Below are positions 14,118 through 63,530 of a stretch of 64,000 bases of DNA, one piece after another. Under the pieces are notes generated by a model. That model did not search any database. It was given only the letters and a program-made list of their open reading frames with translations, and was not told the DNA's origin. The DNA is taken from positions 126,728,001-126,792,000 of the forward strand of contig NC_042997.1 of the NCBI RefSeq assembly GCF_006345805.1. The letters run 5' to 3'. The stretch is from Octopus sinensis. Lineage: Eukaryota. The first letter of the stretch is position 1, and the number at the start of each line of letters is the position of its first letter. A program made the translations under genes and the position numbers.

Positions 14118-16651
14118 TATGTGTTAGCATGGAAAATGGATGTTAAACGATGATGATGATGATGATGATATATGGCGTGTGTTAAGAACTTAGCTTCCCA
14201 ATCAGATGGTTGTGGGTTCAGTCCCTCTGTGTAGTTTATATATATATATATGTGTGTGTGTGTGGCCGTGTGGTAAGAAAGTAGCTTCCCTACCACATGG
14301 TTCTGGGTTCAGTCCCACTGCATGGCATCTTGGGTAAATCTTTTCTACTATAGCTTTGTGCTGACCAAAACCTTGTGAGTAGATTTGGTAGAAGGAAACT
14401 GAAAGAAGCCTGGTGTGTGCGTGTGTATATATACATATATACATATGTATGTATACATCTATATGTGTGTGTCTTTGTGTCTCTGTTTGTTCCCCCATCA
14501 CCTCTTGATAACTGCTGTTGGTGTGTTTATGTCCCTGTAACTTAGCAGTTCTGCAATAGACACCAATAGAATAAGTACTAGGCTTTAAAAAATAAGTCCT
14601 GGGGTCAATTTGTTTGACTAAAATCCTTAAAAGCAGTGCCCCAGCATGGCCACAGTCAGACGACTGAAATAAGTAAACAAAATTAATGAGTACACACACA
14701 CACACATGTGAATATATTTCTTTTATTCTTTTACTTGTTTCAGTCACTAGACTGGGGCCATGCTGGAGCACTGCCTTTTAGTTGAAGACATCGACCCCTG
14801 GACTTATTCTTTGTAATCCTGGTACTTATTCTATCGGTCTCTTCTGCCAAACTGCTAGGTTACGGGGATGTAAATACACCAACATTGGTTGTCAAGCGAT
14901 GGTGATGGGGACAAACACACACACACACATAAATATATACATATATATATGACAAGCTTCTTACAGTTTCTTATTTCTTTATTGCCCACAAGGGGCTAAA
15001 CATAGAGGGGACAAACAATGACAGACAAACGGATTAAGTTGATTACATTGACACCAGTGTGTAACTGGTACTTAATTTATCGACCCCGAAAGGATGAAAG
15101 GCAAAGTCGACCTCTGTGGAATTTGAACTCAGAACGTAATGGCAGACGAAATACCTATTTCTTTACTATCCACAAGAGGCTAGATACAGAGGAGACAAAC
15201 AAGGACAGACAGACGAATTAAGTCGATTATATCGACCCCAGTGCGTAACTGGTACTTAATTTATTGACCCTGAAAGGATGAAAGGCAAAGTCAACCTCGG
15301 CGGAATTTGAACTCAGAACATAATGACAGACGAAATATTGCCAAGCTTTTCGCCCGGCGTGCTAACGTTTCTGCCAGCTCGCCACCTTTTTTGTCTACCA
15401 AATCCTCTCACAGGTCTTTGGGCAACCTGAGATTATAGTAGATAACACTTGTCAAAGGTGCCACACAGTGGTACTGAACCTGGAACCATGTAGCTGTGAA
15501 GCAAGCTTCTTATCACACAGCCACACCTGCACCTATATATATATACACATGTATGTATGCATGTATGTGTATATCTTTCCCCAATACGTATTGGTGATAG
15601 ATGTAAACATTGGTGAGAAAAACAATGAACTGGTGCTTTCAAACAAAAATACACTGTCTGGTATTTGTTCTGCCTGAGTTGTACAGACAATCCATTGTCA
15701 CTTTTCCATTTTAAATGCAGTGAACCATTGATTTGCCCATTGGAAACCTGTAATCAATAATCTTATTTAGTATTGATAAAATATTATATAAAATTTCAAA
15801 AAATATTTAAGAGGATATATATTTTTCTATATCTATTTATATTTTTAGTTTTTAAATTTTTTGCAGAATTTAAACTCTTAAAAATTTTATTTGTTTCATA
15901 TCATGTAAAAATATCTCCATGTTCTTTCATGTAGAAACAGAAATAGGTTTTTGTCTCCAAAGAGTTAAAACGTGCTTTACTTTATTTATCATCCCAATGG
16001 TGAGTGGTATTGAGTGCAATTGAAGCTTGCTTCCAGTTCTGAGTAAAATTCTGTTTTGCTCCTAGATGCAAGGATGGCTGTGTGGTTAAGCAGCTTGCTT
16101 TGCAACACCATATTTCCAGGTTCAGTCCTACAGCATGGCACCTTGGCCAAGTGTCTTCTACTATATAGCCCTGGGCAAACCAGTGCCTTGAAAAGAATAT
16201 TGTAGATGGAAACTATATAGAAGCTTGTCACATATGTGTGCAGCTGTGTGTGTGTGTGTGTGTGTGTGCCTGTATGAGTGTCTATATGTGTGCATGTGTG
16301 TGTGTGTGTGCATGTGTGAGTGTCTGTATGTGTGCATGTGTGTGTGTGTGTGTGTGTGCATGTGTGAGTGTCTGTATGTGTGCATGTGTGTGTGTTGCCC
16401 CTCCCCCTCCCCACTGCTTGAAAACTGGTATAGGTTTACATTCTCTTAGCTTAGCAAATTTTAGAAAACGGCACATAAAGTACTGGTGGTTGATTTGTTC
16501 AACTAAAACCCTCCAAAGTATTGCTCCAACATGGCCACAGTCCAATAACTGAACCAAGTAAAAGATAGGGAAAGAAGAGAAGGTTACTAGTTTGCTTATA
16601 CCATCCATGCACCTGCAGATAACACATGACTTTTCTTTTATCTTCCACCAG

Positions 16652-53299: not shown

Positions 53300-53546
53300 C
53301 TTGGAAAAGGATGCGTGGCATTCGATCATATAATAATATAAATAATATATAAATATATGCATATATACATACATATATGTACATACCTACATCTATACGT
53401 ATGTATACACATGCCTATATGGGTACAGGTCATAAAAAAAACGTTGAACACAATGAGAAACGAAAACATAAAATCAAAAACATGGAAACGAACTTTTTTT
53501 CAAACAACGAAAAAACAGATTACAAGACACAACACAAGGAATATTT

Positions 53547-53622
53547 CCCTTCTTCAGTTGTCCCTGTTTCGTCTACTCCGCGTTTTCGAAGGTAAGGACA
53601 AGACGCTCCTTCCTTGAAACAG
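53547..53622 (-). ncRNA. Candidate strand-permuted (pseudoknotted) hammerhead ribozyme
   Basis: CUGUUUC..GCGUC UUGUCC uua CCUUC GAAA ACGC ggaguagac GAAACAG GGACAA CUGAAGA AGGG. Confidence 0.55.
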
Positions 53623-54449
53623 TCCTTTAATAAATATGTGACATATTAACGTTGTGATTTTGTTTTTCTTAGCTTTAGAAAAAAAAGAACCTGGTGTTGT
53701 TCACTCTGGTATTGAAAGGGTCTCCTGTTGCATCAACATATACTTGTGCCGTTCCGTCGAGATCCTTCGATAGCAGCTCAGCCTCATACACAACCTCTGT
53801 GTTACAGTGCTCGTTTATTGTGTATGTGGTATTATGTCCACAGGAACAGCTTGCTAAAAGAAGTCCTGAGAGTGTGCCTATTGGAAAACCTACCTACACA
53901 AATCTTAGCATTAAGAGGAAATGCAATGCAGATCAAACGACTTGATAGCACATATAACCAACCACGTCCTCGAAACTGCTGGTAACTAGAGCCGCGTTGT
54001 ATTATGGGGTCGCTGCGTCGAAAATTTCCTTACTGGGGGATACGCAGGAAACTACTTTGCTAATGTCTTTCGTGTTGTTTATGAAAACTATGGCTGATGG
54101 CAGGAAGCGGTGTTAATATGTCAGCTTCACATTCTGTCCAGAAGAGTTTCTATGAATTTGTGCCGAGGTTCAATGTCACATCGAGGAAAGTAATTTTGGC
54201 TCGAAGGAATTAAAAACATGGCTTAGGCCTTTCGTGAGCTTATCTAGAGTGTTGCCGTATACATGGTCTTCATATAGCCCTTACCCTATTGGGGACATTT
54301 CCTACCAAGAGTATTAAAATTACAAGGTCATCGCACTGTTAAAAGCAGTCGCTACCATATTGAAAAATAAAAACCTTCCATATATGTTCGTTTGTTTCAA
54401 ATTGAAAGCATATCGAACAAGAGGGTATTCTTGATATCTCTTATGATAA

Positions 54450-54832: not shown

Positions 54833-57800
54833 TGTATGATAAAAGCTATACTGACATCGTTAATGTCAGTATAGCTTTTAGTAAAGCTAACTTTGCCCTG
54901 TATAAAAAGTACTTCGATGTAGATGAATAAAGCTCAACAATAATATCACATTGGGAGAATCTTGCTCTGCCCCTGCCAACATTGTGTTTAAACTATGAAA
55001 TGAGCTTATTTATATTGCTCCATAGGGAGAGGCCAAAAGCCTTTCTCATGTCATTGCTTATCTTTCTGAACTGCTATTTGCTCCTTAACCTAATTTCTGA
55101 CTTCGCATTTGGCATCGGAGACAAAGATAAGTATATAGCCTTTAATTATTATAAACGCATTCTTCGATAAAGTCTACGCTGCTTTCAATGCCTAATGCAA
55201 TACCTATCTGTTTGGCCTCATGGCTTATGCTATCATTGGCCTTAGGAACAGTCATGTAATTCTGAGTGATTGTGTATTTTTTGTTGTCTATTCCACAGAA
55301 ATTCTTAGTCTCGTCTGCAAAGTCCTTTTATAATCTCACGTACGTCTACATTAAATTTATATTGTAGGCAAGAAGACTTATGAAATCTCAGCTTGGACAG
55401 GGTCTGTCACTTTTTAAAATCGATGGAATCAGTTGGATAAGTCAATTGACAGAACCGTAATATATTGGTTTGAAATTTTGGTCAAAGCTCAGCAGTTTCG
55501 GGGTGGTGGTAAGTCGATTACATCGACCTCAGTGTTTAACTGGTACTTATTTTATCGACCCCGAAATGATATAAGATAAAGTCGACCTCGGCGGAACCTG
55601 AACTCAGAACATAAAGAAGCACGAAATGCCATTCAGCATTTTGCCCACCTTGCAAACGATTCACTGCCTTTATAAGAAACGTAATATATTCTCTTTACTC
55701 TTTACTCTTTTACTCTTTTACTTGTTTCGGTCATTTGACTGCAGCCATGCTGGAGCACCGCCTTTAGTCGAGCAAATCGACACCAGGACTTTATTCTTTG
55801 TAAGCCTAGTACTTATTCTATCGGTCTCTATTGCCGAACAGTTATGTTACGGGGTTGTAAACACACCAGCATCGGTTGTCAAGTTACTCGGTTACTCTTT
55901 TACTTGTTTCGGTCATTTGACTGCAGCCATGTGGAGCACCGCCTTTAGTCGAGCAAATCGACACCAGGACTTTATTCTTTGTAAGCCTAGTACTTATTCT
56001 ATCGGTCTCTATTGCCGAATAGTTATGTTACGGGGATGTAAACACACCAGCATCGGTTGTCAAGCGATGTTGGGGTGGGGGACAAACACAGACACACAAA
56101 CATATACACATACACATATATATATACTTATATACGACGGGCTTCTTTCAGTTTCCGGCTACCAAATCCACTCACAAGGCTTTGGTCGGCCCGAGGCTAT
56201 AGTAGAAGAGACACTTGCCCAAGTGGGACTGAACCTGAAACCATATGGTTGGTAAACAAGCTACTTACCACACAGCCACTTCTATATACGATAGGTATCT
56301 TTCAGTTTCCGTCCGCCAATATCCATTCGCAATGCTTTCATCAGCCCAGGGTTATAGCAGGAGTCACTTACCACGGTGCCGTGCAGTGGGACTGAACACT
56401 TATTCCATATGTGGTCACTGAGCATGCTAAAAGTAATAACCAGAAAGCCATAAAATCACTGCCCACCCTGAAAGAAACAACACGGGATACATTGACTAAT
56501 GAAGTCCCAGATGCAATATATTTGCTAAAACGAGACGGTCACGGCTGGAATATCTTTAATCACAAGGCTGATCTGGAGTTAAATAACCAGTTTGTTTTCA
56601 TATCTTCTTTTATTTTCTCCTTTTTCTTTTAGTTCATTTTTATTACCCCAGCAAAAGAAAAACAAGAAAAGGAAGAAGCAACCATGCATTGAAATAAACC
56701 TGCTTATAGCATTAATGTCTTTCCGATTTCTTAAGATGGTTAGAAAACTCATAGATTTTTCCCTGGTTTTACTACTTTTTATGTTACAAGAAAGACACAC
56801 GAAACGAAACTGCTCGTGATCTTAAATCTCACCACATCGTAATCCTCTACTTGCTTTTCCATGTAACAACCAAAGCAATCATATTGACAGAACTGTTGTC
56901 TGTCAAAGGAAGCAAACTACTTGTGTATGGAGATTAATGCTTTCAGTTTATCTCTGAATGTTTTGACATTAAAGATTCACTTGATCTAATGCGTTATTCT
57001 CTCAATTACGTAGACAGTTGCACCATATATCGGTACGGTCTGTTATTTCATGACTTGCACATATTGATGCGATACTATATCCTTAACTTGATTTCTTATT
57101 GTTTTACACTTTCTTTCAAGACAATATTCTATTTATTCCTTATTCGATTTTTCTGTAGGAAAACGGAATTGAATTTAATGCAAAATGTAAATTTAGTTGT
57201 AGATGAAACAGAAGTTCAAAAGTTGAGGCTTCTACTGCAAATCCAAAAATTTGAGTTTCAAACGTTTGTATAAATAAATCTGAAAGGATTCTGAGAGAAG
57301 AAAAGAACTTGTACTCAAATTTGAAAACTGGAAGAATACTACCTTATCACAGCAACATGTTATCAGCATGTGATTCACATTGTTATAGTTATCATTATGA
57401 AGCACACGTTGTAAGTATATAGAGCGTGGTATGGCTCCAGTCTCTATATTGTATATATTCTCATTATTTCGTCGTCTTATGTTCAGTTTCTAAGCTGGCA
57501 TAAGTTGGACGGTTCGACACTATCCGAGGACAGCGTTCTTATTTCTTTATTGCCCATAAGGGGCTAAACACAGAGGGGACAAACAAGGACAGACAAAGGG
57601 ATTAAATCGATTGCATCGACCCCAGTGCGTAACTGGTATTTAATTTATCGTCCCCGAAAGGATGAAAGGCAAAATCAACCTTGGCGGAATTTGAACTCAG
57701 AATGTAACAGCAGACGAAATACTTATTTCTTTACTACCCACAAGGGGCTAAACACAGAAGGGACAAACAAGGACAGACAAACGGATTAAGTCGATTATAT

Positions 57801-58298
57801 CTACCCCAGTGCGTAACTGGTACTTATTTAATCGACCCCGAAAGGATGAAAGGCAAAGTCGATCTCGGCGGAATTTGAACTGAGAACGTAGCGTCAGGCG
57901 AAATACTGCTAAGCATTTCGCCCGGCGTGCTAACGTTTCTGCCAGCTCGCCGCAGAGGACAGCGTTCTGCTCCGCTATTTCAGCTTTGATATGGTTTCTA
58001 CGGCTGGATGTCATTCTTAACAAGAACGACGTTACAGAGCGTAATATCCCCCATGTCTAAAAGGAGAGAAAAGTGTTGGTTTTAGGCAAGGCGATGGGAG
58101 AGGATAAGATGTGATGAAAGGAACAGATTTATTGAAGTGGCAAGGTGCTCTTGATTGAGAGACTAGCAGAGTAGACTGTTGGTTGATATGGAAAGGACAG
58201 AGGAAAGAAGGATTTAGTGTCAAGGGATAGTGAGAATGAGAGAAAGGGAGTAGTAAGGACAATGGGATGGGTTGAGTGTATGTAAATATGGATGGATG

Positions 58299-60176: not shown

Positions 60177-60244
60177 CATACATATATATCCATTGATTTT
60201 ACCCTTTTATTATTGATATCCATATATATATATATATGGATATA

Positions 60245-61707
60245 TATATGCTGAACCACCTCCCGAAGACTGTAAAGAACGGAACACTACTGGTATCTTT
60301 CGATGTGGTGAATCTATACAATAATATCCCACACGACTATGCTATAGAAGCAATTACATTTTGGCTAGAAAAATACCCAGAAGAGATCCCAGGACGAATT
60401 AACCACAATTTTATAATTGAAGCACTGAAATTCGTCCTGTTGAACAATCATCTCTTGTTCGATACTACTTACTATCGATAGAAATGCGGAATTGCAATGG
60501 GGACCAGAGCTGCTTCAGTGATTGCAAACCTCGTAATGGGTTACAACGAACTTAAGTTATACCAATCATCACTAGAAAAATATGGCGCCTCTTTTAATTG
60601 CTACTTAAAGGAGAACTGGAAGAGATATTTAGATGATTGCTTCATACTTTGGAAAGACAGCATGGATCAACTCCTTGACTTCAAAAGAATGCTCAACAAA
60701 TACACAGCAATATACAATTCACTATGGAACACAACAGTAAGCAACTCCCTTTTCTAGACATCTTAATTAGAATAGTTAACAGCCACATAGAAACAGTCAT
60801 CTTTTATAAACCGACAGATTCTAAACAATACCTATTATTTAACTCCTGCCACTCCAAACTCATAAAAATCAACATACCCTTTAACCTAGCAAAAAGAATC
60901 TGCACCATAGTTTCCGATACATACACTCGAGAACATAGACTCCTTGAACTTAGATCTACACTAACTAAAAGACATTACCCAATCTCATTAGTAAATGAAG
61001 GCATCAAAAGAGCTAAGGAAATAGATATACAAAGGTTAAGGAAAACTAGCCGAAATACTAAACAAGACTTAAAAATACTCCCGTACATTTCCACACATAA
61101 CCCCAGAAACAACGAAGCCTTCAACATCATCACCCAAAACCTTCCCATCCTCACAGCAGACAAAACAATGAACGAAATTTTAAGCTCATATAAAATTATA
61201 AAAAGCAAAAAGCAACCGAAGTCACTGAAAAAAATATTAACCAGCGCTAGACTGTATCCACCAACAACAGAGCCAAAAGTGACAAGATGTGGTCGTTCTA
61301 ACTGTGGAACATGCCCCAACCTTCTGGAGGGTTCAGAATTCCATTTCAAACAAGGAGAAATATTTAAGATCAAATCAAATTTCACCTGCGCCTCAGTAAA
61401 TGTAATCTATATCATGACATGCATAGGATGCGGTAAACTCTATATTGGACAAACAAGAATTTCGCTCCGTCAAAGAATCACCATTCACAAAGAGCAAATC
61501 CGTCATCCACAATACAGACAGTTAAAGGTGAGTGCACACATAGAAAGATGTGCCAGGAATCTTAATCCCAATTTCCAAATATTTCCCTTTTACCAATGTT
61601 CACAGAACACCGCAATGCAACAAAGGTTGAATAAAGAGGCATTTTTCATCAATAAATTTCTCCCCCAACTAAACATGAACACACAACTCAATACAGAACA
61701 CCACTAA
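60245..61707 (+). mobile_element. 5'-truncated Penelope-like retroelement: RT plus GIY-YIG endonuclease (one stop, one frameshift)
   Basis: LVSFDVVNLYNNIPH, GIAMGT, WKRYLDDCF, LPFLD, YKPTD..YL..SCH, a CxxxxCxxC linker, and FTC.S.NVIYIMTCIGCGKLYIGQT..R..H. Confidence 0.95.
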
Positions 61708-62280: not shown

Positions 62281-62787
62281 CAAAGGCATATAATTTAATT
62301 AAATTAGAACAGATGAACACATTAGTATATTTATACCTAAAATCGCCAAGAAGTTAGGGAGATAGACAAAGAACATATTGTTTCTACTTCAGCATAAAAG
62401 TTACTAAAATTATGAAGAAGACTCTGCCTGCCACTGATTTTTTGTTTTTATGGGGTCAGTTTTAATTTATAGACTAGTTTATCAAATCCCTTGTATATCT
62501 AAGGCTGAGAGAACAGAGGGCAGTATGAAATACAGAAGGAAGTAAGAGAATGATAATAGAACTGAGATATGTAAAGATATTGTATTTGCAGTTCCATTAT
62601 TCAAGTAGAAGTGTGTATATATGTGGTACAGGAAACTTCTTCACCACTTATATACACCATTCTACTTGTATAATGGAACTGCAAATACAATATACCTATG
62701 TATCTCACTTTTATTTTTATTCTTTTACTTCCCTCTATATTTCATATCTTCTCCACAATAATTAATACTCAAACATTTTCTCGCACC

Positions 62788-62896: not shown

Positions 62897-62963
<67 letters not shown>

Positions 62964-63065
62964 CATGCATATATGGGTACAAGGCGACACCAAGAGTGCA
63001 GATAGCATGAAATACGTAAACAACATGAAAAAATGGAAAATAGGACAAGTAAACACAGAGCAAGA

Positions 63066-63128
63066 ACCTTTCATCAGTTGTCGGCTGTCTATCTACTCTT
63101 CATTTCGAGTATGATTCTTCAAAGACAG
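63066..63128 (-). ncRNA. Second, internally deleted copy of the candidate permuted hammerhead
   Basis: CUGUCU..UCAUA [stem I strand missing] CUC GAA AUGA agaguagau AGACAG CCGACAA CUGAUGA AAGGU. Confidence 0.5.
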
Positions 63129-63478
63129 TTGCTCCCATAAATTCTAAAATAAGGAATATGGAAGGTCAAAGAAGTGAACAAAAACATGACAGTGGAGACA
63201 TACAAGGAAACCGAACGAAAACAAACATGGAGGGTCGTTAGACCAGAACGAGAGAAAAATATTGAACGCTGGGACAAACATAGTCGTTGATTATTGAAAA
63301 GCTTGCAAGACGCAACGAAAATTTTAGGAAAAATAAATAAGTAAAGGAATGGAAATTTTACCGGAGAGTGTGTTAAATAATAAGGCACTAAAAGAGAATG
63401 ACTCTCTACAGACACAACAAAATATGATCCAACACACGAACTCACATAAAGAATCTTGCAAACCAAATCCCAAAACAA

Positions 63479-63530
<52 letters not shown>

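Follow-up and report, generated by a model that had tools for sequence, protein, structure and literature searches.

A decayed, deleted repeat copy in the Octopus sinensis genome and a candidate scrambled hammerhead ribozyme in its Penelope-type family

Introduction

What kind of sequence lies at 63066-63128 on the minus strand of a 64,000-nucleotide stretch of the Octopus sinensis genome (NC_042997.1, positions 126,728,001 to 126,792,000; hereafter the window, numbered from its first nucleotide), and does the hammerhead-like core within it belong to a ribozyme? The initial annotation, made from the letters alone, read this piece as a diverged relative of a second unit near 53.5 kb, interpreted the differences between the two as covariation in a permuted hammerhead core under selection, and regarded the copy as inactivated by a deletion.

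Two lines of earlier work bear on this question. In type SGC hammerheads (Eckert et al. 2023, PMC10085705), the cleavage block is joined to the GAAA block through a short linker and is followed by CUGANGA, with stems I and II pseudoknotted. In the sections of that paper cited here, SGC RNAs are known only from metatranscriptomes, with none from genomes of known organisms, and type CSG is represented by only two metagenome sequences. Naiads, in turn, were reported to lack canonical hammerheads, and the cited sections give no fold for them, with eight 'half-core' cases marked, one of them in Octopus (Craig et al. 2021, PMC8557442).

Results

The copies in the window

The stretch at 63066-63128 is a decayed, deleted copy of a non-coding Penelope-type repeat, and its features are listed in Table 1 together with those of the second copy. 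The ribozyme fold reaches 63167, past the end of this stretch. The sequence ATGGGTACA occurs exactly twice within the 64-kb window, at 62973 and 53419; it is shared by the two units as first described, but it is not the end of the element, since an AT-rich part and the terminal CAUCC(A/U)UUU motif follow in the sense direction.

Table 1. Features of the two repeat copies in the window, in window coordinates
Feature	Position	Strand	Remark
Repeat copy, 5'-truncated, subfamily A1	62973..63281	-	sense is the minus strand; 14 blastn matches from loci L001-L030 end at 63281
Stem IV 5' strand	63162..63167	-	partner of the strand right after CUGANGA
Hairpin V	63135..63161	-	between stem IV and G10.1
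Stem II 5' strand	63130..63134	-	G10.1 at 63134; upstream of the cleavage block
Outer helix, 5' strand	63123..63128	-	bridges stems I and II
GAA side of the conserved GAA/AGUA internal loop	63118..63120	-	
Stem III strand 16.x	63110..63115	-	U16.1 at 63111; predicted cleavage base H17 = A at 63110
13-nt deletion junction	63109..63110	-	takes away the stem I 3' strand, the linker and some of the stem II 3' strand
Remnant of stem II 3' strand, G12-A13-A14, stem III strand 15.x	63099..63109	-	
AGUA side of the internal loop and outer helix 3' strand	63085..63098	-	
Stem I strand 2.x and CUGAUGA core	63071..63083	-	
Stem IV 3' strand	63065..63070	-	
(TA)n tract at the sense 3' end	62900..62972	.	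insertion site or decayed AT-rich tail
Second copy, subfamily B1	53300..53630	-	terminal motif 53300-53314; ribozyme remnant 53551-53628

The base changes first described between the two copies are present in the sequence. Relative to the 53.5-kb unit, two compensatory pairs change stem III from ACGC/GCGU to AUGA/UCAU and one changes the outer helix from CUGUUU/AAACAG to CUGUCU/AGACAG; N7 (A versus U) and H17 (C versus A) differ, and CUGA-GA, GAA-A, U16.1 and GAGUAGA are kept in both. Stem II was absent from that initial model and proved to be the unusual part of the fold.

The stem I strand is indeed missing after H17, and the reported shortening by 13 nt is real, although the comparison that defines it is with intact members of the copy's own subfamily. 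The deletion junction pattern occurs only twice genome-wide, one occurrence being the window copy itself; the deletion is real and nearly private. The stem I strand that had been predicted directly after the cleavage base was found exactly in 13 of the 29 best relatives and with 1-2 mismatches in 6 more, the remaining 10 being unmatched by the script that looked for it, and 470 sequences genome-wide match the undeleted pattern compared to 0 for the reversed control. With its 1.x strand gone, and the stems flanking its core thus incomplete, the window copy would be dead, in keeping with the proposed inactivation by deletion. It folds no better than its shuffles (z = -0.16); in the fold of an intact copy (z = -2.9), stem IV is closed.

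The 53.5-kb unit is defective too, being 5'-truncated near 53630, before G10.1 and stems IV and V, and its GAAA carries an extra A (53580-53587). The same extra A is common to several B1 copies (L032, L035, L036, L039 and L040), and a B1 sub-lineage carrying it may have been amplified. Elsewhere in the window, a segment with little match to the loci compared (63282-63479) lies between the 5' truncation of the A1 copy and the next (TA)n, and SINE-like repeats form tandem pairs of 181-184 nt at 14972-15337, 55702-56064 and 57538-57907.

An abundant non-coding repeat

GAAA, GAGUAG and CUGANGA in this order gave 5,037 exact matches in the source genome, compared to 12 for the reversed control. DNA searches of the same genome yielded 4,004 first-look candidates for the window copy, of which 40 were scored (80-85% identity), and 3,836 candidates for the 53.5-kb unit (91-94% identity). 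Among 83 distinct copies there are at least seven subfamilies. Copies have a fixed sense 3' end, consisting of an AT-rich part, the CAUCC(A/U)UUU motif and then usually (TA)n, with the ribozyme fold 50-250 nt away from it. Their 5' ends are ragged, some 5' pieces are inverted, and tandems spaced 789-901 nt apart occur occasionally. Six copies have the tail motif again at 498-561 nt ahead of the core, and no ORF was seen in the interval; the units run from tail to tail and have about 500-560 nt preceding the core. No ORF was seen in the repeat units, and so none with the N-terminal GIY-YIG and C-terminal RT of an autonomous Naiad PLE; the repeat is built like a non-autonomous Penelope-type unit and measures about 650-900 nt.

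A hammerhead core in non-circular order

Pairing was counted in alignments A2 and A3, which hold 28 and 24 hand-picked, non-truncated copies from the 83 distinct A-D copies. The elements of the fold follow each other in the order IV-V-10.x-outer-16.x-H17-1.x-11.x-GAAA-15.x-outer-2.x-CUGANGA-IV, so that cleavage block, GAAA block and CUGANGA block stand in type SGC order with a short S-G linker. This order is non-circular and differs from the circularly permuted three-way junction of hammerhead types I-III. Among the 150 of 250 Rfam matches listed for the window there was no hammerhead family, only microsatellite-driven miRNA matches.

Stems I-III are 93.8% paired, compared to 28-42% in slid controls, and 10 of their 15 pairs show two-sided changes; as the subfamilies are related, such pairing and covariation counts overstate the number of independent events, and the alignments were selected by hand for completeness, with the structures named from the same sequences. 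Comparison between subfamilies gives identities of 97.7% for core positions, 54% for paired stem positions and 41% for N7 and H17; the core figure carries some circularity, since most core letters were set by the patterns used for searching. U16.1 (23 of 24 copies) and G10.1 (21 of 24) were not among the letters so fixed. Of the 72 copies with an S block, 70 have A or C at H17, one has U and one has C after a shifted call. The aligned copies thus hold CUGANGA, GAAA and UH, most of these letters being pattern-fixed, flanked by stems I, II and III with covariation, and the core and the stem I and III pairings agree with the hammerhead consensus. The GAA/AGUAG internal loop, presumably loop E-like, is 93% identical between subfamilies, its AGUAG side having been fixed by the pattern. 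The putative outer helix would link stem I to stem II on their free sides; its register shifts among octopus subfamilies, and cross-pairing discriminates poorly except in B1, C1 and a metagenome family described below. In total, covariation extends far beyond the two copies from which selection on the core was first proposed and supports that interpretation, with the qualification that the replicating master lineages, and not the window copy, were what selection acted on.

Stem II is closed from upstream

The strand before GAAA has its partner 21-29 nt upstream of H17. This upstream stem II is 95% paired, 3 of its 5 pairs covary, and G10.1 forms a G-C pair in 26 of 28 copies. The alternative stem II, formed with the strand after CUGANGA, was tested with and without a bulge and rejected: one register is 73.6% paired, mostly by G-U, with one column unpaired in 25/28 copies, and the other is 60.7% paired, with C11.1 unpaired in 28/28. 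The strand after CUGANGA pairs instead with a far-upstream strand, forming stem IV (85.8% paired, 2 covarying pairs, 24 copies), and the space that remains up to G10.1 is taken, with no linkers, by hairpin V (93.7% paired, 3 covarying pairs, 24 copies). With the stem II partner upstream and stems IV and V paired, the backbone is therefore open between A9 and G10.1, which breaks a defining assumption of the SGC scheme. These are fixed-register counts, used because a free search for stems IV and V was too permissive: it gave scores of at least 9 in 10/14 and 15/21 copies against 0.45 and 0.41 in shuffles, a weak control, and in 0/8 copies of the octopus Naiad group, where stems IV and V are imperfect.

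No description of this split A9/G10.1 wiring, and no tested precedent with two helices, was found in the open-access article texts searched. The cited part of Perreault et al. 2011 describes only short core insertions, and a term search of the Eckert supplement returned no octopus, Acropora or Naiad (PMC10085705).

The fold at Naiad 3' ends

A pattern for the Octopus half-core Naiad end gave 568 matches in the source genome compared to 1 for the control, and the Naiad-type ends of this genome closely match the published Octopus consensi. In the portions of PMC8557442 compared, the 'HHR_core' and 'HHR_half_core' annotations, including that of Naiad_Ovul, coincide with the split fold. For 17 of the 30 best matches to a Naiad-type RT the split fold lies in sense 462-1328 nt downstream of the RT C-terminus (0 otherwise), and it also lies downstream of 7/20 more distant matches; this RT was called Naiad-type by eye against the published consensus, its Pfam RVT_1 match being below the cutoff (E 9.6e-5). 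In the octopus Naiad group, stem II reaches 5 bp upstream in 7/11 copies and downstream in 0/11. The repeat and the Naiads share the fold, the terminal CAUCC(A/U)UUU motif and the (TA)n flanks; no ORF-bearing parent of the same sequence was found, nor any A-D-type ribozyme in sense behind a Naiad ORF. On these shared features, the repeat is likely mobilised by the proteins of a Naiad retrotransposon as its putative partner. Loci L160-L166 hold more diverged, decayed Naiad-type ribozyme families, with no ORF found within 4 kb upstream.

The fold is not confined to the octopus. A pattern from the Acropora Naiad end retrieved at least 120 metagenome stretches, forming a family that matches coral Naiads. 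In alignment A4, which holds 19 full-length copies from 113 distinct metagenome matches (many of these being 5'-truncated), all six helices together are 94.1% paired with only 3 covarying pairs, parts of the alignment having been fixed by the fetch pattern, and the outer helix is 96.8% paired. Downstream stem II pairing is 0 in 17/17 copies with an S block, and upstream pairing reaches at least 5 bp in 12/17. No Naiad ORF was found upstream of the metagenome copies. Inspection of the published Naiad consensi by eye placed the split order together with stems IV and V in the Octopus, Acropora and one Morbakka consensus, and the split order in one consensus close to the Darwinula-Paralithodes entries; one Clytia-region consensus has the SGC order. 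About five nematode consensi have a clean, plain CSG order at their 3' ends (File S5), and in the passages inspected many consensi, bivalve ones among them, had no such motif (PMC8557442).

Neptune-like elements were considered as parents and ruled out. One candidate was the GIY-YIG ORF beside copy L076, and the motif and the fold occur at only 1/30 copies of that family; a younger Neptune-like family has different 3' ends. Within the window, a broken Penelope-like ORF with RT motifs and a GIY-YIG region (60226-61700, plus strand; 61% identical to the L076 protein piece) represents a distinct Neptune-like family; it lies on the opposite strand, some 1.3 kb away from the ribozyme copy, and between them is an inverted repeat spanning about 110 nt (62579-62691). 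The young Neptune-like family (L122-L125, L128) has ORFs of up to about 790 aa and, in its 3' UTR, CUGAAGA followed about 300 nt later by GAAA and a palindrome, together a possible split or minimal hammerhead. The 3' end of an older family (L093, L094, L096 and L098) has GAAA and a palindromic stem III without CUGANGA, possibly a decayed minimal hammerhead.

RNA reads

Three RNA runs from one study, of which about 6% was read, placed 102, 90 and 70 reads on L074 and 795, 592 and 509 on L039, with mate orientations about equal. At this low depth, the reads on the two loci showed no pile-up of ends and no back-joint.

Discussion

We consider it probable that the window holds a deleted copy of a non-coding Penelope-type repeat whose scrambled hammerhead takes its stem II strand from upstream, and that intact copies cut themselves after H17 and are mobilised by Naiads. 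As judged from its conserved letters and pairings, the ribozyme of the repeat would work like a hammerhead, and it is not type SGC as defined. With that type it shares the block order, the short linker and the pseudoknot; the outer helix may correspond to the interaction helix that links the free sides of stems I and II there. In the SGC RNAs described in the cited sections, however, block C has its stem II strand immediately 3' of CUGANGA with at most 1-2 nt inserted, whereas the octopus strand lies upstream, and stems IV and V occupy the A9/G10.1 gap in a block that Eckert et al. assumed to be unbreakable (PMC10085705). The octopus repeat is also present in thousands of copies in an animal genome.

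Naiad PLEs resemble the repeat in their (TA)n targets, their tandem and inverted 5'-truncated copies and the position of the fold in the 3' UTR, but the window repeat has no ORF and its sequence is unlike the Naiad_Ovul-type 3' end (PMC8557442, cited portions). Non-LTR retrozymes and PLE minimal hammerheads are likewise non-coding hammerhead units from PLE termini, occurring as monomers and tandems, and activation through two copies has been proposed for them as it is here; theirs are type I, with a short palindromic stem III, according to the parts cited (PMC4209133; bioRxiv 10.64898/2026.07.22.740005; PMC7229834). The octopus repeat, in contrast, lacks the type I hammerhead of each retrozyme unit, having instead a non-circular order and a stable, extended stem III in units of about 650-900 nt that are mostly dispersed.

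Three other explanations were weighed. The structure might derive from a hammerhead but no longer cut, marking the 3' end for recognition by the Naiad RT or endonuclease. Its placement near the fixed 3' end would suit such a role, as would the poor cutting of PLE minimal hammerheads in vitro (PMC4209133, as cited) and the lack of cleavage in 8/9 Xenopus retrozymes (bioRxiv 10.64898/2026.07.22.740005, as cited), but the near-constant A or C at H17, the free N7 and the retention of U16.1-A15.1 and the core are what catalysis requires, and we regard this explanation as unlikely. Somewhat more improbable still is a plain type-SGC hammerhead, in which a weak stem II with one bulged A would form after CUGANGA while the upstream stem II, IV and V represent an alternative off-state. 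In octopus subfamilies A-D, 3-4 such downstream pairs are indeed possible, including a G-C next to G12; against this, the downstream pairs are mostly G-U, with a mean of 2 bp across the octopus Naiad group and of 0 for the metagenome family, the strand after CUGANGA covaries with its own partner in stem IV, and the upstream G-C pair at G10.1 is almost invariant.

Chance pairing among related AT/GU-rich repeat copies would be helped by pattern-fixed core letters and shared ancestry, but paired positions only 54% identical between subfamilies are nevertheless more than 90% paired, and an unrelated-looking metagenome family keeps all six helices; this explanation is largely refuted and we give it almost no weight.

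Under the preferred reading of a self-cutting hammerhead, intact copies would be likely to cleave after H17. Such cleavage would release unit-length RNA of about 650-900 nt from tandem or read-through transcripts, as has been proposed for PLE hammerheads (PMC4209133, as cited), and Naiad proteins would then reverse-transcribe this RNA into (TA)n sites. Undocked, the RNA is predicted to form a rod whose tip loop contains 1.x/11.x and whose base contains 10.x/2.x-CUGANGA. If the ribozyme is active, our model gives about even chances to tip-to-base docking of two tandem copies, with a bent monomer close behind. We lean to the dimer because of a rough A-form reach estimate, by which the metagenome family monomer could not close with all helices (34 versus 58 Å), while the octopus forms could close as a monomer if the internal loop is loose. 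A similar geometric puzzle is remarked on for a few SGC RNAs in the cited sections of PMC10085705. The split order itself might have arisen from partial tandem duplication of a CSG ribozyme. It is a tentative proposal, with the odds somewhat against it, that a hammerhead outside the six-permutation scheme is the missing Naiad ribozyme across several phyla (as CSG in nematodes), that it originated by CSG duplication, and that it fires only on tandem docking, cutting out unit-length RNA. A transcript of 130-150 nt would hold the intact fold, of which the window copy would be no more than a dead example.

If this reading is true, the assumption that the stem II strand must follow CUGANGA would be overturned, and the open A9/G10.1 site would offer ribozyme engineering a new place to attach domains. 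It would also explain why Naiad elements seemed to be without hammerheads, and non-circularly permuted ribozymes, described so far from environmental RNA, would gain a place in animal genomes, at high copy number.
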